DNA of 17,300 nucleotides. Source: Candidatus Aenigmatarchaeota archaeon. Its GTDB lineage: Archaea > EX4484-52. How positions within the stretch are numbered: the stretch's first letter is position 1; each line of letters starts with the position of its first letter. Below the pieces are notes generated by a model that was given only the letters and a program-made list of their open reading frames with translations, did not search any database and was not told the origin of the DNA. Shown here piece by piece: positions 2-14,863 of the stretch. The stretch is from positions 1-17,300 of the forward strand of contig JAGLPV010000004.1 in the NCBI GenBank assembly GCA_023137195.1. Reading direction: 5' to 3'. The translations under genes were made by a program, and so were the position numbers.

Positions 2-1003
2 GGAAGAAAACAAGATGAAGACTATGCTAAACTGGATTCAGACGGAATTATTTCTCCGGGTCAGCACGTTGACACAGAAGATATATTGGTAGCAAAATCA
101 TCGCCACTTAGATTTGTGGATACTGAAAAAGAAATACATATGGGTATCAGCAACATGCATGATAATTCAGTAAAAACTTCAAGAAATGAACCGGGCACAA
201 TAGAACAGGTTCTTATTACATCAACAGAAGAAGGAGAAGCTCTTGTAAAAGTAGGTGTGAGAGAACACAAAATACCCGAAATAGGAGACAAATTCGCAAC
301 CAGGCACGGGCAGAAAAGTGTCGTAGGTATGATTGTTCCTGAAGAAGATATGCCAACCACGGCAGACGGCAGGACACCAGACATTATATTTAATCCACAC
401 GCAATCCCATCACGTATGACTGTAGGTCAGATAATGGAAATTATTGCCGGCAAATACGGCGCATTGATTGGAGAAAAAATAGATGCAACTGTATTCGGAA
501 GCAAAAAAGAAAAAATAGTAAGCGGACTCGAAAAATTAGGATTCAATAATAACGGGAAAGAAACACTCTATGATGGAAGAACGGGTAAAAAAATAGAATC
601 TGAAATTCTCATGGGCGTCTGCTTTTACCAGCGACTTTACCAGTTGTCATCTCATAAATTATATTCAAGATCAAAAGGACCGGTCACTCTACTTACAAGA
701 CAACCAACAGAAGGAAGAAGTAAGGGCGGCGGTCTAAGACTGGGAGAAATGGAAAAAGACTGTATACTTGCACACGGAGCGGCAATCTCTCTACACGAGA
801 GATTCAGTTGCGACCACCAGAAAGTAAAAATATGTAATAAATGCGGAGTGATTGCAATAATGGACACTGAGAAAGGAAAATATCACTGCCCTATCTGCAT
901 GAAAAACGACATAGGTGAAATAAAAATACCGTCTGCTTTCAAATTATTGATAGATGAAATGATTTCAATGATGATATACCCTAAAATAATAATAAATGAT
1001 TAA
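2..1003 (+). CDS. rpoB: DNA-directed RNA polymerase subunit B (Rpo2), C-terminal part, 5'-truncated by the window edge
   Basis: The frame is open from position 2 (GRKQDEDYAKLDSDGIISPG...), so the track start at 86 is internal. Motifs: GDKFATRHGQK, EDMP..DG.TPDIIFNPHAIPSRMTVGQ, LTRQPTEGRSKGGGLRLGEME and a C-terminal CxxC...CxxC zinc ribbon. Confidence 0.97.
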   Translation, partial: GRKQDEDYAKLDSDGIISPGQHVDTEDILVAKSSPLRFVDTEKEIHMGISNMHDNSVKTSRNEPGTIEQVLITSTEEGEALVKVGVREHKIPEIGDKFATRHGQKSVVGMIVPEEDMPTTADGRTPDIIFNPHAIPSRMTVGQIMEIIAGKYGALIGEKIDATVFGSKKEKIVSGLEKLGFNNNGKETLYDGRTGKKIESEILMGVCFYQRLYQLSSHKLYSRSKGPVTLLTRQPTEGRSKGGGLRLGEMEKDCILAHGAAISLHERFSCDHQKVKICNKCGVIAIMDTEKGKYHCPICMKNDIGEIKIPSAFKLLIDEMISMMIYPKIIIND

Positions 1004-1015
1004 TCAGGTAATAAT

Positions 1016-4000
1016 ATGAGTAAAATAAAAAGAATTGATTTTGGTTTAATAGCTCCTTCGGTTGTAAGAAAACTTGCAGTCATAGAAATTACATCTCCGG
1101 ACGTATATGATACAGACGCACTTCCTGTAGAAGGAGGGATAATGGATTTGCGACTGGGTGTTGTAGATCCCGGCTCAAGATGCAAAACATGCTTTGGCAA
1201 GTTGGATACCTGCACAGGACACTTCGGATATATTACTCTTGCAAAACCCATAATAAATGTACTCTACATCAACTATATCAAAAAAATATTACAGGCAACA
1301 TGCCATAAATGCGGCGCATTGTTACTGGGCGAAAATGAAATCAAAAAAATGGAGGATGATGAAACTGAAAATTTCATAAGCATCAAATTAACAACTACAA
1401 AAAAATGCCCTAAATGCGATGAAGAGGTAGAAAAACTAAAACTCGAAAAACCACATACCTTTAAATACGGGAAAAAAATACTAAATCCTTTGGAAGTAAA
1501 AGAACACATGGATCGAATCAGTGACGAAGATTTAGAAAAAGTAGGATTTAAAGGAGGCAGACCCGAATGGATGGTTCTCACTCTTTTCTTAATACCACCC
1601 ATTTCTTCAAGACCCTCTATCATGCTTGAAAACGGGGACCGAAGTGAAGACGATCTTACTCACAAACTCGTGGACATCATAAGAATCAACGAGAGATTGA
1701 AAGAAAATGTAAATATTGAAACACCATCCTTTATTATTGATGACCTATGGGAACTCCTGCAATACCACGTAACAACTTATTTTAACAATGAACTAACAAA
1801 CATTCCTCCGGCAAGACACAAATCCGGAAGACTACTGAAGACATTATCTTCGCGTCTTAAAACAAAAGAAGGAAGATTCAGACTAAACCTTACAGGAAAA
1901 AGAGTAAATTATTCCTCTCGTGGTGTAATTTCACCGGATCCACAGATACATGTCAATGAAGTAGGCGTACCAATAAGTGTCGCCCAGGAATTGACTATCC
2001 CTGAAGTAGTAAATGAAAAGAACAAGGAATTTCTTTCCGGTCTTATAAAAAATACAGGCAATTATCCTACTGCTCAATATGTCGTCAGCGATGGATTAAG
2101 AAAAAAAGTAATGGAAAGCAACGCAGAATATATCTCAGATGAATTAAAAAATGGCGATATTGTAGAGAGGCAAATGATTGACGGAGATATTGTATTATTT
2201 AACAGGCAACCATCCCTTCACAGGATGTCCATAATGGCACACTATGCAAAAGTCATGCCGGGGCATACATTCAGACTAAATTTATGCGTATGTAAGCCAT
2301 ACAACGCTGACTTTGACGGTGATGAAATGAATCTTCACCTGATGCAGACCGCAGAAGCAAGAGCAGAAGCAAAAAAGCTTATGCTCGTGGAAGCAAACAT
2401 GCGTTCCCCTAAAGCCGGAGCCCCGGTTATGGGATGCGACCAGGACTACATCTCCGGAGCATATATGCTAACCAGAAATAACACAATTCTCACAAAAAAA
2501 GAAACAGCAAAAATATTAGCAGCAGCAGATATTTACATGGAGTTAGACAAAGAAAAATACACAGGTAAAGAACTATTCAGCTTTCTTATCCCGGACAACA
2601 TAGATATAACCTATGAAACAGACATCTGTTCAATCTGTGAATTAAACGAAAAATCAGACTGCAAACACGACTACAATGTCATCATAAAAAAAGGTAAATT
2701 ATTACAGGGTGTAATTGAAAGCAAGGGTCTGGCATCCTTTAAAGGAAGACTACTAAACCAGATAGATATGATGTGCGGACACAAAGCAGCTGTTGATTTT
2801 TTATATGATATTACAAGAGTCATTGTAGAATTTATGCTTCTTAAAGGATTTTCTATATCAATAGACGATGTCTCTATCTCAAAACAGGCAAAACTCAAAA
2901 TAAACAACGAACTAAACGCCATGGGAGAAAAAGCAGAGGAATACATAGATAGTTACCAAAAAGGAAAAATCAAGGGAAAATATGGGCTTAAACCAAAAGA
3001 ACTCCTTGAAGGAAAAGTCATAAAAGAAATAAGTGATACAACTTCAAAGACACAAAAAATCATAGAAGCAGATGCTGGAGAAAACGGAGCAACAATAATG
3101 GCAAGAACCGGAGCAAGAGGAAGCCTACAGAATCTTATATATATGAGTGCTTTCCTTGGTCAGGAACTGGTCCGGGGGAAAAGAATATTCCGTGGATATG
3201 AAGACAGAACTCTATCTTTCTTTGAAAAAAATGATTTAGGATTAACAGCTCATGGCTTTGACAGAAACTCACTAAGTGATGGAATATCCTACACAAACTT
3301 CTTCTTTGAAATTATGAAAGGAAGAGAAGGACTGATGGACTCTTCCCTAAAAACAAAAGTCAGTGGATACATGCAAAGGCGTCTTGTCAATGCACTTCAG
3401 GATTTTATTGTAGATAAAGACAAAAAAGTAGTTGGAGCAGACGGTGAAATTGTACAATTCCTTGCCGGCGAAGATGGAATAGACCCATCAAAAAGTAATT
3501 TTGGAAAACCTTTCGAAAACAGGAAAGATTCTGAATATGAAGCAGGCGAAGCAATAGGAATTGTATCATCACAGTCCATCTCAGAACCGGCAACACAGAC
3601 AACACTAAGATCATACCATGCTGAAGGTCGACTGACACTTACAACAACAAAAGGACTCCCAAGAATTCTGGAACTAATTGACGGAAGAAAAGAGCCGACA
3701 ACACCTGCCATGAACATCTATTTGACAAAAGAATTCGACAATGAAAAAGGAGCATACTTGATTGCATCAAAAATAAAGGAAATCAAGCTCATTGATGTAT
3801 TAAAAGAAGACACAATCAATGCTTTTGACTTAAACGTTGAAATAAAAATAGATAAAAAAATAGCAGACTCGTTCTCCATAAAAACACCGGATATCCTGGA
3901 AGCTATAAAAAAAGCAGACAAAACAATAATTTGCGTTGCAAAAGAGGATAAAATCATAGTGTCCTTCAAAAAAGAAAATAAAACAATACAAGACCTCCAT

Positions 4001-4519
4001 GAATTGAGAGTAAAATTAAGAGACTCTTATGTTGGCGGAATTAAATCCATAAAACAGGTAATTATTGAAGAAGAAGAAAAGACATGGATAATAAAAACAC
4101 TTGGATCCAACTTAAGAAAAGTCCTGAAAATAAAAGGAGTTGATCCCACAAGAACTATTTCAAACAATATTTTCGAAGTTGAAAGGGTTCTCGGAATAGA
4201 GGCAGCAAGACAGAGCATCATCAACGAAATCTGGTCAACTATGAAAGAACAGGGTGTGCAGACAAACATAAGGCACCTTCTCCTTGTAGCTGATTGTATG
4301 ACGGCAACAGGCACAATAAAATCAATTGGAAGAGCAGGAATATCTGGCGCAAAAAATTCTGTTTTGGCGCGTGCAAACTTTGAAGAAACTGTAAAGAACC
4401 TAACAAAAGCAAGTGTATGTGGAGAAGCAGAAAAGTTCGGAGGAATTGTTGAAAACCTAATTGTCGGCTCCGTTGTACCTGTGGGAACTGCTAAAGTCAA
4501 ATTAAAGATGAAAGAATAA
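1016..4519 (+). CDS. rpoA: DNA-directed RNA polymerase largest subunit, fused A'+A'' (Rpo1), 1167 aa
   Basis: Clamp Zn sites (CKTC..C..H, CHKC..CPKC), RSEDDLTHKL, GKRVN, FNRQPSLHRMS, catalytic NADFDGD (2303-2323) and bridge helix GREGL..SGYMQRRL. A''-type motifs follow in the same frame (GEAIG..QSISEP.TQ, GLPR, LGIEAAR, RHLLLVAD, LARANFEET). SD-like AGGT at 1006-1009. Confidence 0.97.
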   Translation: MSKIKRIDFGLIAPSVVRKLAVIEITSPDVYDTDALPVEGGIMDLRLGVVDPGSRCKTCFGKLDTCTGHFGYITLAKPIINVLYINYIKKILQATCHKCGALLLGENEIKKMEDDETENFISIKLTTTKKCPKCDEEVEKLKLEKPHTFKYGKKILNPLEVKEHMDRISDEDLEKVGFKGGRPEWMVLTLFLIPPISSRPSIMLENGDRSEDDLTHKLVDIIRINERLKENVNIETPSFIIDDLWELLQYHVTTYFNNELTNIPPARHKSGRLLKTLSSRLKTKEGRFRLNLTGKRVNYSSRGVISPDPQIHVNEVGVPISVAQELTIPEVVNEKNKEFLSGLIKNTGNYPTAQYVVSDGLRKKVMESNAEYISDELKNGDIVERQMIDGDIVLFNRQPSLHRMSIMAHYAKVMPGHTFRLNLCVCKPYNADFDGDEMNLHLMQTAEARAEAKKLMLVEANMRSPKAGAPVMGCDQDYISGAYMLTRNNTILTKKETAKILAAADIYMELDKEKYTGKELFSFLIPDNIDITYETDICSICELNEKSDCKHDYNVIIKKGKLLQGVIESKGLASFKGRLLNQIDMMCGHKAAVDFLYDITRVIVEFMLLKGFSISIDDVSISKQAKLKINNELNAMGEKAEEYIDSYQKGKIKGKYGLKPKELLEGKVIKEISDTTSKTQKIIEADAGENGATIMARTGARGSLQNLIYMSAFLGQELVRGKRIFRGYEDRTLSFFEKNDLGLTAHGFDRNSLSDGISYTNFFFEIMKGREGLMDSSLKTKVSGYMQRRLVNALQDFIVDKDKKVVGADGEIVQFLAGEDGIDPSKSNFGKPFENRKDSEYEAGEAIGIVSSQSISEPATQTTLRSYHAEGRLTLTTTKGLPRILELIDGRKEPTTPAMNIYLTKEFDNEKGAYLIASKIKEIKLIDVLKEDTINAFDLNVEIKIDKKIADSFSIKTPDILEAIKKADKTIICVAKEDKIIVSFKKENKTIQDLHELRVKLRDSYVGGIKSIKQVIIEEEEKTWIIKTLGSNLRKVLKIKGVDPTRTISNNIFEVERVLGIEAARQSIINEIWSTMKEQGVQTNIRHLLLVADCMTATGTIKSIGRAGISGAKNSVLARANFEETVKNLTKASVCGEAEKFGGIVENLIVGSVVPVGTAKVKLKMKE

Positions 4520-4612: not shown

Positions 4613-6103
4613 ATGACCAGGGATAAAATCTCAAATGCAAAAGAATTTCTATCTGCCCTCATCAGCAAAGGACTTCTAATTGAACCGGCAACTTTTGAGT
4701 CAATAAAAGAAATGTTCCAAAACAAAGCCAATATTGCCTGCCTTGTCGCAGAATCAATATGTAACGATTCATCAGACGAAATCAACTCTAATACAATAAA
4801 AGAAAAAATCAAATTTTTCGAGGACCAGGAAAAAACAAAACAAAAAGTCACAATAAAAAAAACAATCAAAAAAACAAGAAAAGACTACGATGCACAGGTA
4901 AAAATCAGGAAAATCAAAGAAAACACAGCTAAAAAAAATACAACTTTATTTTGCGACTACTTTCTAAGCAGGTATGAAAAAATAAAAAAAATCCTGGTGA
5001 GGCATCTTGATCTGACAAATCTCGTCTCTATCAACAACCTAAATTCCTCGAAAAGAAACGGGGATATCTCAATCATAGCCATAGTAAAAGACAAGATAGA
5101 AGCAAAAACAGGAACAATTCTGCTGGATGTAGAAGACAAGACCGGAGCTGTTCGCGTATTCGTAAAAGAAGCGGACTTGTGTCAAAACATAATCAATGAT
5201 GAAGTGATTGGCATACAGGGAAACCATTTCAGTGGCGGAATCATTGCAAAAAAAATTATTTTTCCGGAAATCCCTTTCCCACAGGAAGTAAACAAAATAG
5301 AAGAACCACTAAAAGCTGTTTTCATAAGCGACGTGCACCTGGGCAGTAAAGAATACTTAAAACTCGTCGAAGAAAAATTTCTCAAATGGATTAACAAAGA
5401 CAGCCAGACACAAGATGTAAAATACCTCTTTATTTCAGGCGACAACGTAGATGGAGTAGGCATCTACCCAAGCCAGAAAGAAGACCTGGAAATAAATGAT
5501 ATTTACGAACAATATGCTGAATTTGAAAGATTCATTGAAAAAATACCCGAAGAAATAGAAATCATGATTTGCCCGGGAAACCACGATGCAGTTATGCAGT
5601 TTGAACCGCAGTTTGCCCTGGATAAAGTCTATGTCCCAAATCTAGTGAACCGCTCAAATGTCCATCTCGTAAAAAACCCGGAATACATCTACCTCCACAA
5701 CAACGATGACAGCAATGGTCTGAAGGTTTTAATGTATCACGGCTATAGCTTCACAAGTATAATTGACGTAATCCCGGAATTAAGAAAACACGGTCTTTCC
5801 CACCCCGAATACGTCATGACAGAGGTCCTAAGAAAAAGGCATGTCGCTCCATTGTACGGAGCAAGCATCGTAGCACCTGCAACAGAAGATTACCTCGTAA
5901 TGGATGAAATCCCTGACATTTTCCAGACAGGTGATTTGCACAGCCATTGCCTCAAAAATTACAAAGGAACAACTCTTATTTCATCAAGCACATTCCAGGG
6001 ACAGACTAGTTTCATGGACAGGGTGGGTCACATAGCAAACCCGGGAAAAGTGTCTATGGTTGATTTACATACAAGAGAGTGTTTTATCAAGAATTTTATG
6101 TAA
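4613..6103 (+). CDS. polB: DNA polymerase D small subunit DP1 (OB fold + calcineurin-like 3'-5' exonuclease)
   Basis: OB region (LDVEDKTG..DEVIGI.G) and phosphoesterase motifs SDVHLGS, GDNVDGVGIYPSQ, PGNHDA..EPQ, YHG, RHVAPLYG, PDIFQTGDLH, STFQGQTSF. Confidence 0.95.
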   Translation: MTRDKISNAKEFLSALISKGLLIEPATFESIKEMFQNKANIACLVAESICNDSSDEINSNTIKEKIKFFEDQEKTKQKVTIKKTIKKTRKDYDAQVKIRKIKENTAKKNTTLFCDYFLSRYEKIKKILVRHLDLTNLVSINNLNSSKRNGDISIIAIVKDKIEAKTGTILLDVEDKTGAVRVFVKEADLCQNIINDEVIGIQGNHFSGGIIAKKIIFPEIPFPQEVNKIEEPLKAVFISDVHLGSKEYLKLVEEKFLKWINKDSQTQDVKYLFISGDNVDGVGIYPSQKEDLEINDIYEQYAEFERFIEKIPEEIEIMICPGNHDAVMQFEPQFALDKVYVPNLVNRSNVHLVKNPEYIYLHNNDDSNGLKVLMYHGYSFTSIIDVIPELRKHGLSHPEYVMTEVLRKRHVAPLYGASIVAPATEDYLVMDEIPDIFQTGDLHSHCLKNYKGTTLISSSTFQGQTSFMDRVGHIANPGKVSMVDLHTRECFIKNFM

Positions 6104-6164: not shown

Positions 6165-6944
6165 ATGGAAAAAAATATATACTTATCAAAAAAAGAACAG
6201 GAAGTTTTCAATGTCTTAAGAGACCTAAAAAACCCTGTTATTGAACACGACCAGCTAAAAGATGTTTTCCAACATAATAAATATTTAAACAAAACAATCA
6301 GTAGTCTTATAAGAAAAAAATATTTTTTAAAAATAAAAAAAGGACTGTATTTGATACAAAAAGAGCCGTCAGATAAAATAAACATAGATGATATATATGC
6401 TATTGCACTGAGAATTAAAAAAGGATATTTTGCTTTTTCAACAGCCCTGCGATTGCATAATCTTATGGAATACGAACCATTTACTATCTACATTGCAACA
6501 AGCCATAAGCCGGAAGAAATCAAAATAAGCAATTACCTGATAAAAGCAGTTAACTACACCAAAATAGGCAATATAACAACCATCAATAAATATCCTGTTT
6601 CAACAAAAGAAAAGACCTTTTTTGACTGCTTCAATAAGCCACAATACTGCGGTGGCTTTTACCAGATAACTAATGCTCTCTACAGCACCAGAATAAACTG
6701 GAAAATCCTTTTAACTTATTTCAAAAAACATGCCTCAAATGTCCTATGCCAGAAAACAGGCTATATTCTGGAGCAGATGAAAGAAAAAACAAATTATGAA
6801 ATTCCCAATTATGTAATCAATTATTTGAAAACAAGAATAAAAAATAAGGTCTATCTAATCGCAGGACAAAAAGGAGGCAAATATAATAAAGAATGGAAAT
6901 TAACGGATAATGACCGAAATTTCTTAAAATGGTATTATGGCTGA
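6165..6944 (+). CDS. abiEi: AbiEi-family type IV antitoxin / transcriptional regulator
   Basis: N-terminal winged-HTH-like segment (ISSLIRKKYFLKIKKGLY), GYFAFSTALRLHNL, and STKEKTFFDC..KPQYCGG. It overlaps the downstream nucleotidyltransferase gene by 8 nt (ATGGCTGA). Confidence 0.85.
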   Translation: MEKNIYLSKKEQEVFNVLRDLKNPVIEHDQLKDVFQHNKYLNKTISSLIRKKYFLKIKKGLYLIQKEPSDKINIDDIYAIALRIKKGYFAFSTALRLHNLMEYEPFTIYIATSHKPEEIKISNYLIKAVNYTKIGNITTINKYPVSTKEKTFFDCFNKPQYCGGFYQITNALYSTRINWKILLTYFKKHASNVLCQKTGYILEQMKEKTNYEIPNYVINYLKTRIKNKVYLIAGQKGGKYNKEWKLTDNDRNFLKWYYG

Positions 6945-7740
6945 TTTAAAATATTTACGATATAAATCCCTGGAAACCGGCTTTGGCTTAAATTACATAT
7001 CTAAAGAAGAAAAACTGTCTTTACTTCTATACGATTTATCGACCCTCTTAACTGACAAATTCATAATAAAAGGCGGAACTGCCCTAAATCGCGCTTATCT
7101 AATAAATAAAGGACTCTCCAGATTTTCTGAAGACATAGACATAGATTATATTGCAGAAAAAAAATTTGATGAAAAAATAAAAGATACAGCCAAAATCATG
7201 GATAAAATCAAATCATTTGATGTCGCAAAATCAAGACTTATGAATAAAACGCTCCGGTACGATTGCTATTACATCAATGAATTAAACCATAAAGACAGGA
7301 TTCAGGTTGAGTTCTATTTAGCCCACGATAAAATTATCTGTCAGCAACAGCCAGGGAAAAAAACATTGAAATCCTCTTTTATAGAATCGCAACTTGCGTA
7401 CTTAAGAGTTTATTCCTTCGAGGATCTATTCGCAAGGAAAATAATTGCCTGTTTAAATAGGATGGAAGGAAAAGACATTTACGACTTGTTTTACTGTTTC
7501 GAAGTTAATTTCGACAAAAAGACATTAAAAAAAGCAATTGTCAAAATAGCAGAATTTTATGGATTGCCCGGCAATGCAAAAGAAATAATAATAAAACTAA
7601 TCCAAAAATTAAATTCTGTTGAAAACCAGTATTATATCGGAACTTCAACAAATCATTTTATCCCGCGAAATTTAAGACCAGACTGGAAAATAATAATTAT
7701 TTCATTAGCAGACAAGCTAAAGTTAAATTTATTATTGTAA
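6937..7740 (+). CDS. abiEii: AbiEii-family (DUF1814) nucleotidyltransferase toxin
   Basis: Signature KGGTAL...RFSEDIDI, then EDLFARKI.A..NR..GKDIYDL. Translationally coupled to the upstream antitoxin gene. Confidence 0.9.
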   Translation: MADLKYLRYKSLETGFGLNYISKEEKLSLLLYDLSTLLTDKFIIKGGTALNRAYLINKGLSRFSEDIDIDYIAEKKFDEKIKDTAKIMDKIKSFDVAKSRLMNKTLRYDCYYINELNHKDRIQVEFYLAHDKIICQQQPGKKTLKSSFIESQLAYLRVYSFEDLFARKIIACLNRMEGKDIYDLFYCFEVNFDKKTLKKAIVKIAEFYGLPGNAKEIIIKLIQKLNSVENQYYIGTSTNHFIPRNLRPDWKIIIISLADKLKLNLLL

Positions 7741-12911: not shown

Positions 12912-14840
12912 TCACTTCTTCTCCTTCTTCTCATCTTCCTTAACTTCCCCGTCAACAACTTTCTCTTCTCCTCCTTTCTTGTCTCCGGACTGCTCAGACG
13001 TCTTTGCCTGTTGTTCTGCTTGTGCCTTCTGCTGTGCCTGCTGGTACATCTTCATTGTCACTTCCTGAACAGCAGTGGAAAGCTCTTCTTTCTTTGCCTT
13101 TATATCATCTGCATTATTGTCTGCTATAGCTTTCTTCAGTGCCTCTTTCTTCTCTTCAATCTCTTTTTTCTTGTCATCTGTCATGATGTCTTTCGGCGCT
13201 TCCTTGATTGTCTTTTCAACAGTATTCACAAGCATCTCTGCCTCGTTTTTTTCCATTATCTCATCGGATTTCTTTTTATCCTCTTCCTCGTGAACTTTTG
13301 CATCATCAACCATCTTTTTAATCTCATCATCTGAAAGACCGCTTGTCTTCTTGATAGTAATACTCTGCTCTTTCCCGGTACCTAAATCTTTCGCACTAAC
13401 CTGTAAAATACCGTTCGAGTCAATGTCAAACTTTACCTCAATCTGTGGTATTCCTCTTTGTGATGGAGGTATCCCGTCAAGAATAAATCTTCCAAGACTT
13501 GTATTGTCTGCTGCCATTTTCCTCTCTCCCTGGAGTACATTAATCTCCACACTCGGCTGGTTGTCCGCAGCAGTAGAAAATATCTGTGTCTTCTTTGAAG
13601 GAATCGTAGTATTTCTCTCAATCAATGGAGTCGCGATACTCCCCAAGGTCTCAATACTCAATGTAAGAGGAGTGACGTCCAGAAGAAGAACATCCTTTAC
13701 ATCTCCGCCAAGTATACCTCCCTGGATTGCCGCACCAAGTGCCACAGCCTCATCAGGATTGATGTTTTTTGACGGTTCTTTTTCAAATATATCTTTTGCA
13801 ACTTTCACAACAGCAGGAACTCTTGTCGAACCTCCCACCAGAAGAACCTTGTCAATATCTGAAGGCTTTAATTTTGCATCATCAAGAGCTTTATGGCATG
13901 GCTTTCTTGCCCTATCAAGTAAATCATCAATCAATTCCTCGAATTTTGCTCTTGTCAAAGTCATATCAATATGCTTTGGACCACTGGCATCTGCTGTAAT
14001 AAACGGAAGGTTTATTGATGTCTGGACAGTTGTGGAAAGCTCTATCTTTGCCTTTTCAGCCGCGTCCTTCACTCTCTGTATAACAGAAGCATCTTTTGAA
14101 ATATCCATACCATTCTGCTTCTTAAATTCATCAAAAATATAATCCATTATTTTCTGGTCAAAATCATCTCCACCAAGATGATTATCTCCGGCAGTAGATT
14201 TTACTTCAAAAACCCCTTCACCCAATTCTAATACCGTAACATCAAATGTTCCTCCACCAAAATCAAACACAAGAACAGTTTTGTTGTCTGTCTTATCAAT
14301 CCCGTACGCAAGAGCAGATGCCGTAGGCTCATTAATTATCCTCTTCACCTCAAGACCTGCAATCTTTCCTGCATCCTTAGTAGCATTTCTCTGTGCATCA
14401 TCAAAATATGCCGGCACAGTAATTACCGCCTCGGTAACCTTAGTTCCAAGATAACTCTCTGCATCTTCCTTCATCTTCTGCAAAATCATTGCGGATATCT
14501 CCTGTGGACTGTATTCTTTTCCTCCTGCTTCAAACGCACAATCCCCGTTCTTCGCAGCCTTAACTTTAAACGGCACACTTTTTATCTCCTTCTGTACAAG
14601 AGAATCATTAAATTTCCTCCCAATATACCTCTTGGTAGAATAAATAGTATTCTCCGGGTTTGTAATTGCCTGCCTTTTTGCCAATACCCCAACAAGACGC
14701 TCTCCTGTCTTTGTAAATCCAACCATAGAAGGTGTTGTTCTTGTACCTTCTTTATTTGGAATAATAACTGCTTTTCCTCCCTCGATAACCGAAACAGCAC
14801 TAAATGTTGTTCCTAAATCAATTCCTATTATTTTTCCCAT
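12912..14840 (-). CDS. dnaK: Molecular chaperone DnaK (Hsp70)
   Basis: [62 protein letters not shown] 14840 is preceded by SD AGGTGA; the track's GTG start at 14849 lies inside that SD. Confidence 0.98.
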
Positions 14841-14863
14841 ATTAATCACCTATTTAATCACTC

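Follow-up and report, generated by a model that had tools for sequence, protein, structure and literature searches.

Among multisubunit RNA polymerases, one of the closest described counterparts of the locus considered here is yeast Pol II, whose trigger-loop variants have been reported by Qiu et al. (2016, PMC5127505) and Duan et al. (2025, PMC12391331). According to the available portions of both papers, variants of the M1079 pocket mostly raise activity by destabilizing the open loop, variants of F1086, V1089 and V1094 mostly lower it, and the funnel-helix variant G730D is slow; nearly all substitutions of the Met “linchpin” and of the linker are lethal, and most of them are not suppressible. 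The walls of the Met pocket (I837, L841, V1352, V1355, and I1356) are named in the part of PMC5127505 at hand, and the accessible text of PMC12391331 adds that lethals at A1087/G1088 mostly resist suppression and that trigger loops transferred to another enzyme are widely incompatible. In the active center of multisubunit RNA polymerases, the Ala-Gly linker and the Met linchpin rank among the least replaceable parts. Both are replaced in Rpo1, the largest RNA polymerase subunit encoded by the stretch of DNA analyzed here (the window: 17,300 nucleotides, positions 1 to 17,300 of contig JAGLPV010000004.1, assembly GCA_023137195.1, from a Candidatus Aenigmatarchaeota archaeon).

This variant loop is the fixed, normal, and selected form of a whole small DPANN phylum. 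An initial annotation, made from the sequence of the window alone, had described it as a non-canonical trigger loop. It turned out not to be the quirk of one genome, the same state being fixed in all 40 phylum genomes in which the loop could be read.

Register and Residues of the Trigger Loop

The loop and the open reading frame (ORF) that carries it are placed as follows on the window.

1016..4519, + strand: fused Rpo1 (A′ and A′′ in one ORF), 1167 amino acids, from the ORF list, with Pfam Rpb1 domains 1–5; carries the trigger-loop variant
3566..3673, + strand: trigger loop S851–E886 (yeast Rpb1 1068–1103), from the translation and the gapless alignment to solved A′′ chains and to 1i3q_A 1062–1106
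3599..3601, + strand: T862, site of the Met linchpin (yeast M1079), by the offset of +217
3617..3619, + strand: H868, catalytic trigger-loop His (yeast H1085), kept, from the translation and the yeast alignment
3620..3631, + strand: linker A869-E870-G871-R872, replacing the canonical Y/F-A-G-V (yeast F1086–V1089), from the alignments

The stretch 3566–3680 of the forward strand is translated as SSQSISEPATQTTLRSYHAEGRLTLTTTKGLPRILELI, in frame with the ORF at 1016–4519, and S851 thus stands at 3566 and H868 at 3617–3619, as initially annotated. Residues 841–1165 of the ORF were aligned with phmmer to the A′′ chains 4qiw_C, 2y0s_C, 2waq_C, and 2pmz_C, with E values of about 1e-75 and a loop free of gaps; against 4qiw, the E values are 6e-76 for chain C (trigger-loop part) and 4e-54 for chain A (bridge-helix part). 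With a 48-residue query (ORF 845–892), residues 845–889 match residues 1062–1106 of yeast Rpb1 (1i3q_A), 45 on 45, which gives an offset of +217. The register and the yeast numbers are thus correct, including the positions G1073, M1079, F1084, and A1087 first proposed for the changed sites. At this offset, the following residues correspond to each other.

S856: yeast Rpb1 G1073
A859: yeast Rpb1 A1076
Y867: yeast Rpb1 F1084
A869: yeast Rpb1 F1086
E870: yeast Rpb1 A1087
G871: yeast Rpb1 G1088
R872: yeast Rpb1 V1089
G880: yeast Rpb1 G1097
E886: yeast Rpb1 E1103

Elsewhere, the offset is +280 for ORF 1060–1099 (yeast 1340–1379), +51 for the bridge helix, as taken from the ends of the alignment stretch, and approximately +50 for the funnel helix.

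The residues that contact the nucleoside triphosphate (NTP), Q861, L864, R865, and H868 (yeast Q1078, L1081, R/N1082, and H1085), are kept, in agreement with what had been stated for the key Q, L, R, and His, and the C-terminal hinge G880, P882, and E886 (yeast G1097, P1099, and E1103) is kept as well. The canonical Met of the 1079 site is replaced by T862, and the canonical Ala-Gly linker (1087–1088) by E870–G871. The changes listed in the initial annotation (G→S, M→T, TF→SY, and YAGV→AEGR) were all recovered by alignment to the solved A′′ chains, and the loop is non-canonical in a correct register.

The ORF encodes the archaeal/eukaryotic largest subunit of RNA polymerase, as judged from its Rpb1 domain set and from its alignable bridge helix and trigger loop. 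Rpb1 domains 1–5 follow each other in order (PF04997, PF00623, PF04983, PF05000, and PF04998), all above the Pfam cut-offs, with E values of 1e-80 to 2e-18. The translation also contains YNADFDGDEMNLH, which we take to be a match to the motif named NADFDGD, the catalytic Asp triad of the largest subunit. An artifact, be it a wrong register, an assembly or sequencing error, or a decaying paralog, can practically be dismissed. The gapless alignments to solved A′′ chains and yeast Rpb1 lead to rejection of a wrong register; a second paralog was rejected on the single Rpb1_5 match found in the genome (1.42 Mb, 57 contigs, 84.8% complete). The 1167-residue ORF is intact as well as being the sole copy, and the same residues recur in 39 other genomes as well as in 71 clusters of proteins taken from several public collections. 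The gene with the variant loop is the normal rpo1 of the organism and, in terms of genome annotation, an ordinary one.

Distribution in the Phylum and Beyond

The reference set for the phylum comprises 42 species-level genomes (one order, 8 families, 13 genera), 41 of which have an A′′ match. The loop could be read in 40, from the window, 29 loci, and 10 fetched regions; G002 (71% complete) lacks a match, and that of G034 is limited to a C-terminal fragment. In all 40, site 856 (G1073) is S or A, site 862 (M1079) is T (35) or I (5), and site 867 (F1084) is Y. The A1087 site is E in 25 of them and the canonical Ala-Gly pair is kept in 6. Residues 869–872 of the linker take the following forms.

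AEGR: 12 of 40 genomes
SEGR: 8 of 40 genomes
RAAG: 7 of 40 genomes
AAGR: 6 of 40 genomes
REGK: 4 of 40 genomes
RESS, RDAT, and RVSG: 1 each of 40 genomes

A search of 1.84 billion cluster representatives matched 10,095 proteins, the best 150 of which were taken and 148 aligned to the loop. In this sample, the Met site is M in 100 of 143 rows, with 26 rows showing the Asn of an intein that follows the Met, and T in 2 of 143, one of them being the cluster of the window itself and the other a cluster that represents the remainder of the phylum. The A1087 site is A in 132 of 144 and E in 1, and the G1088 site is G in 141 of 144; the G1073 site is G in 115 of 141 and S in 20, and the F1084 site F in 117 of 144 and Y in 20. 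The archaeal consensus quoted in the initial annotation agrees with these counts. The gene being a conserved one, chance plays no part in the argument; what matters is how unusual the residues are, and the counts provide the answer. Taken singly, G→S and F→Y thus occur fairly often, unlike Met→Thr and Ala→Glu.

A word-based search gave 3471 clusters with E ≤ 1e-20. Among the best 120, 119 have a readable loop, and the Met site is occupied by T in 63 of them, by I in 8, by M in 46, and by L in 2. All 48 clusters with M or L there retain the Ala-Gly pair, versus 15 of the 71 with T or I, and the 63 T-type clusters display 18 linker forms. Database names on the T/I-type clusters are inconsistent (Aenigmarchaeota, Nanohaloarchaeota, DPANN group). 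The survey of homologs suggested at the outset, as a way to see whether the variant is frequent, has a double outcome: the full variant is rare among archaea at large and universal in its own clade.

This clade-fixed variant of a known element appears to be new. No description of it was found in the accessible literature on DPANN trigger loops or Aenigmarchaeota Rpo1, in which the 116 archaeal loops tested in yeast (multiple sequence alignments of 426 or 542 sequences) are named only in supplements (PMC12391331). The available portion of PMC7289017 gives no account of it, and that of PMC13257274 deals with small subunits only, the words “trigger” and “bridge helix” not being found there.

Two other kinds of loop were encountered in these searches. 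His-less trigger loops, with Ser or Thr at the catalytic His site (yeast H1085; ...TQMTMRSY[S/T]...), occur in L048, L082, and L098 and in proteins P0016 and P0101. The three genomes have one Rpb1_5 locus each, and two of these loci form a clade (support 1.0) inside the Aenigmatarchaeota-like group; such loops may be more surprising than the Thr-type variant. In addition, many A′′ representatives (e.g., P0012, P0014, P0020, and P0028; 560–1020 amino acids) have an intein directly after the trigger-loop Met (...TQM/[S/C]...HN/T..., slashes marking its ends).

Origin and Selection

Query-anchored Rpo1 rows were gathered for 110 loci, from which L063, L065, L108, L080, and L104 were dropped (frame-shifted, intein-split, or misaligned loops). 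They were classed as 33 T-type (31 distinct), 27 Met-type (mostly titled Aenigmatarchaeota), 3 without the loop His, and 42 canonical rows, the latter including Thermococcus, Methanobrevibacter, Bathyarchaeia, Asgard, and others. A midpoint-rooted tree was computed with FastTree (LG+gamma) from the 98 rows with at least 700 aligned residues, columns 650–720, 749–809, and 845–892 (trigger loop, bridge helix, and funnel) being masked. The 33 T-type rows all fall in one clade (support 1.0), itself nested in a larger one (support 1.0) that also holds the Met-type and His-less rows; the support for the immediate sister of the T-type clade is 0.12. The Thr variant thus had a single origin, in a Met-type ancestor where S856, A859, and Y867 were already present. 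At the G1073 and F1084 sites, the canonical residue is kept in none of the 27 Met-type rows, G→S and F→Y being common to the Aenigmatarchaeota-type relatives.

None of the 33 T-type rows departs from His at the equivalent of H868. When 48 loop codons are compared, the window differs from its congener G003 by 19 synonymous and 0 non-synonymous changes, and from G001 by 16 synonymous and 5 non-synonymous ones. The variant form is under purifying selection. Since it is also carried by the sole Rpb1_5 copy, the enzyme must work, and these two observations argue for the earlier proposal that it is still catalytically active.

The serious rival among the alternatives is relaxed constraint, in which small-genome, host-dependent DPANN cells would tolerate a sloppier loop, the Met and Ala-Gly changes being slightly deleterious or neutral drift. 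The linker tetrapeptide is diverse, with 8 forms in 40 genomes and 18 in the 63 T-type clusters (among the best 120 of 3471), at a place that is near-invariant elsewhere (A in 132 of 144 and G in 141 of 144, among the best 150 of 10,095 representatives), and a related lineage is even devoid of the loop His. However, each family keeps its own linker (RAAG in 7 genomes, SEGR in 8), and the loop hardly varies in its N-terminal half between the 8 families, which share only about 50–58% identity overall (53–59% for Rpo1). The count of 19 synonymous against 0 non-synonymous codon differences with the congener and the clustering of the changes near the loop, instead of an even spread, also make this explanation unlikely.

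Co-Changed Segments and Proposed Control of the Loop

The following segments have changed together with the loop.

3299..3403, + strand: bridge helix F762–D796 (about yeast 813–847), aligned to 4qiw_A, 36ro_A, and 8cro_A
3038..3064, + strand: C-terminal end of funnel helix α-21, T675–I683, from the alignment and group counts (yeast offset +50, approximate)
3104..3175, + strand: F-loop-like segment T697–R720 (TGARGS...GQE), with Y709 (Y or F in the T-type rows) for the canonical Q and E717 for Q
4256..4264, + strand: V1081-Q1082-T1083 (about yeast 1361–1363, offset +280), with L→V and V→T, both exclusive to the T-type clade, where they are fixed

In the bridge helix, the changes are E765 (canonical H), K768 (G), M774 (V), S776 (T), S777 (A), K779 (R), and V/I782 (Q; V in the window); the altered sites correspond to yeast H816, G819, V825, T827, A828, and K830, in the N-terminal half of the helix. 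The funnel helix is changed at 675 and 676, with Q680 in place of an invariant Gly (about yeast G730) and I683 in place of an invariant Ala. The C-terminal region shows V1081 (L), T1083 (V), Y1107 (H; A in the window's genus), and N1121 (A). Most of the bridge-helix and funnel changes are common to the Met-type relatives, the sites specific to the T-type clade being 862, 866, 877, 709, 1081, 1083, and largely 879.

A position was counted as lost when its canonical residue, conserved in at least 90% of the 42 canonical rows, is kept in at most 10% of the T-type rows, and the segments were delimited as in the yeast papers: α-21 (Rpb1 700–750), bridge helix (800–860), and trigger loop. Out of 417 positions, 39 are lost. 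The three segments contain 22 of these 39 and 58 of the 378 others (one-sided Fisher p 4.5e-8, odds ratio 7.1), or 12 of 29 and 37 of 351 without the trigger-loop columns (p 5.6e-5, odds ratio 6.0). The enrichment is to be taken as descriptive, the rows being kin and positions 856 and 862 (2 of the 22) having helped to define the T-type group. The changes are concentrated in the trigger-loop system.

The reading that we favor, at a probability of roughly three in four, is that of an active enzyme in which the open/closed control of the trigger loop would have been rebuilt by co-evolution, in an epistatic manner, with the bridge helix, the funnel helix, and the F-loop-like segment. The NTP-touching and hinge residues (equivalents of Q1078, L1081, H1085, G1097, P1099, and E1103) are kept, and those that balance the open (inactive) and closed (active) loop in yeast Pol II are replaced. 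The Met linchpin of the open-state hydrophobic pocket has given way to Thr, and the tightly packed Ala-Gly linker of the closed state to Glu-Gly, or to other sequences in the sister families, with Ala and Arg at the equivalents of F1086 and V1089. The surfaces predicted to pack against the loop have changed in the same lineage, namely the bridge helix in its N-terminal half, funnel α-21 at its end, and the F-loop-like segment. The outcome would be a functional enzyme, possibly with a shifted speed/fidelity set-point. We infer from these comparisons that the changes may compensate each other physically and may carry a kinetic effect; the combination of “fast” with “slow/lethal” changes in a changed surround fits such a co-evolved rebuild.

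Several points weigh against this reading, beside the descriptive nature of the enrichment given above. The “compensation” is deduced from co-occurrence within a single clade and so, in essence, from a single evolutionary event, kin not being independent. The diversity of the linker from one family to the next (8 forms in 40 genomes) would also fit a loosened constraint. The walls of the Met pocket, yeast I837, L841, V1352, V1355, and I1356, correspond to M786, L790, I1072, T1075, and M1076 and are not distinctly different from those of canonical archaea. A specific change in the bridge-helix wall of this pocket was rejected, M786 and L790 being the canonical archaeal residues, and nothing there visibly compensates Met→Thr. 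The claim of an altered bridge-helix pocket, made in the initial annotation, holds thus for the N-terminal half of the helix and fails for the wall of the Met pocket. Many of the changes in the bridge helix and the funnel also occur in Met-type relatives that have Ala-Gly, and are thus not specific answers to the linker change.

The inclusion of the funnel (secondary-channel) helix and of new charged residues (E765, K768, E717, and R872) among the changes gives only indirect support to a directional adaptation to a specific pressure, such as resistance to a factor or small molecule acting via the secondary channel or the trigger loop, or a response to a low nucleotide supply from the host. We consider it very unlikely: no candidate factor was found, the neighbors in the window point to none, and TFS, the cleavage factor that enters by the secondary channel, is present in 39 of the 42 phylum genomes. 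A link to the loss of TFS was rejected on the same count (PF01096 in 39 of 42, the three genomes without it being 74–85% complete), so that the loop change is not tied to such a loss.

It is conceivable, although doubtful, that the polymerase of this phylum closes its trigger loop by a different latch, in which a basic residue of the linker would pair with new acidic residues of the bridge helix or the F-loop-like segment (E765, E717), the aromatic residue at 709 varying with the type of linker. No linker of the phylum is without such a basic residue, either R/K872 or, in families without it, R869. The only pattern of covariation within the phylum associates R869 with T-F at 708–709 and A/S869 with A/T/I-Y, the R/F state occurring in two separate clades; drawn from two events, it hints at a coupling between 869 and 709, as a lead. 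If true, the different latch would be that of a natural enzyme mixing changes of the yeast “fast” and “slow/lethal” classes, with its speed/fidelity set-point shifted, and would offer a ready-made system for how the most constrained part of a multisubunit polymerase gets rebuilt.

Whatever the latch, an archaeal phylum with Thr for Met and eight linkers represents a natural series of solutions to an active-center constraint. Since the co-changed residues of the bridge helix, funnel helix, and F-loop-like segment are already listed, the epistasis is directly testable with recombinant archaeal polymerases.

Gene Organization and Neighborhood

Upstream of rpo1, the window contains the following feature.

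2..1003, + strand: C-terminal part of RpoB (Rpb2 domains 6–7, Pfam), 12 nucleotides upstream of rpo1

The position of rpoB directly upstream is as expected of the archaeal organization of Rpo1 genes. In most archaea, A′ (Rpo1N) and A′′ (Rpo1C) are encoded by distinct genes, which is not the case in the window. The single-ORF Rpo1 is common to the window and two congeners; of the 29 other loci, 24 have split genes, 2 an independent fusion, and 1 a B′ fused to A′. The fused Rpo1 of the window's genus is compact (1167–1168 amino acids), without about 40–60 residues of the usual A′′ N-terminus. An independent in-frame, full-length A′+A′′ fusion of 1209–1220 amino acids is found in three genomes of another genus (G027, G037, and G041). 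At L124 (G007:C89, 3529–7809), a 1426-residue ORF joins Rpb2 domains 4–7 (the RpoB C-terminal half, B′) to Rpb1 domains 1–5N (A′), with a separate 499-residue B′′ gene upstream and A′′ downstream; this arrangement was seen in one genome only, where an assembly error is possible. The ORF list of the window also has an antisense ORF, 3397–3717 on the reverse strand, inside the strongly conserved rpo1 coding region.

Directly 3′ of rpo1 lies a gene for the PolD small subunit (4613–6103; DP1-like, with DNA_pol_E_B and Metallophos by Pfam). The usual archaeal neighbors in this place are ribosomal-protein and nusA genes. Further on, an AbiEii-type nucleotidyltransferase toxin domain (6937–7740) overlaps the end of a 259-residue ORF without Pfam match (6165–6944), and the two possibly form a type IV toxin–antitoxin pair. 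A full-length Hsp70/DnaK (12912–14849, reverse strand, E 9e-258) is encoded in this small DPANN genome, its neighbors including a DUF58 protein and an alanine dehydrogenase/PNT-type protein.

Comparison with Known Polymerases

The solved archaeal A′′ loops of Thermococcus kodakarensis (4qiw), Saccharolobus/Sulfolobus (2y0s, 2waq, and 2pmz), and Pyrococcus (8cro) have the same length and register as that of the window, with about 45–50% identity over A′′. The Q, L, R, H, GLPR, and E positions are alike in the canonical loops and in the window. The differences are G→S (in SIGEP), M→T, T→S, F→Y, Y/F→A, A→E, V/I→R, V→T, and L→K, together with the fusion of the gene to A′.

The Met-type loops labeled Aenigmatarchaeota (27 loci; 46 clusters) stand closer. 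As in the window, they have S at G1073, A at A1076, and Y at F1084, as well as E717, M774, S777, and the loss of H765, G768, G680, and A683. In contrast, they keep Met (93%), T1083 and V1094 (yeast numbering), and the Ala-Gly pair (48 of 48 clusters, among the best 120 of 3471). These residues are changed in the window's clade alone, together with Q709→Y/F, L1081→V, and V1083→T.

Yeast Pol I provides a precedent for divergence within a set of related enzymes. According to the available text of PMC5127505, it differs from Pol II by a diverged loop tip (V1089H, A1090G, and S1091A) and by a differently placed, less constraining funnel helix; going by the list of differences given there, Pol I keeps the Met and the Ala-Gly pair, unlike the window.

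With respect to yeast Pol II, the sites changed in the window are those singled out in the accessible parts of Qiu et al. (2016, PMC5127505) and Duan et al. (2025, PMC12391331): the M1079 pocket, F1086/V1089, A1087–G1088, V1094, and G730. The comparison with yeast mutants called for in the initial annotation could thus be made, and it reveals one “fast”-class change combined with several “slow/lethal”-class ones; given the strong enzyme-context dependence described in the same parts of these papers, mutant effects are not transferable and the sign of the net kinetic effect is not inferable from them. The yeast changes described there are single and engineered, and mostly sick or lethal, whereas those of the window's clade are combined, natural, and fixed.

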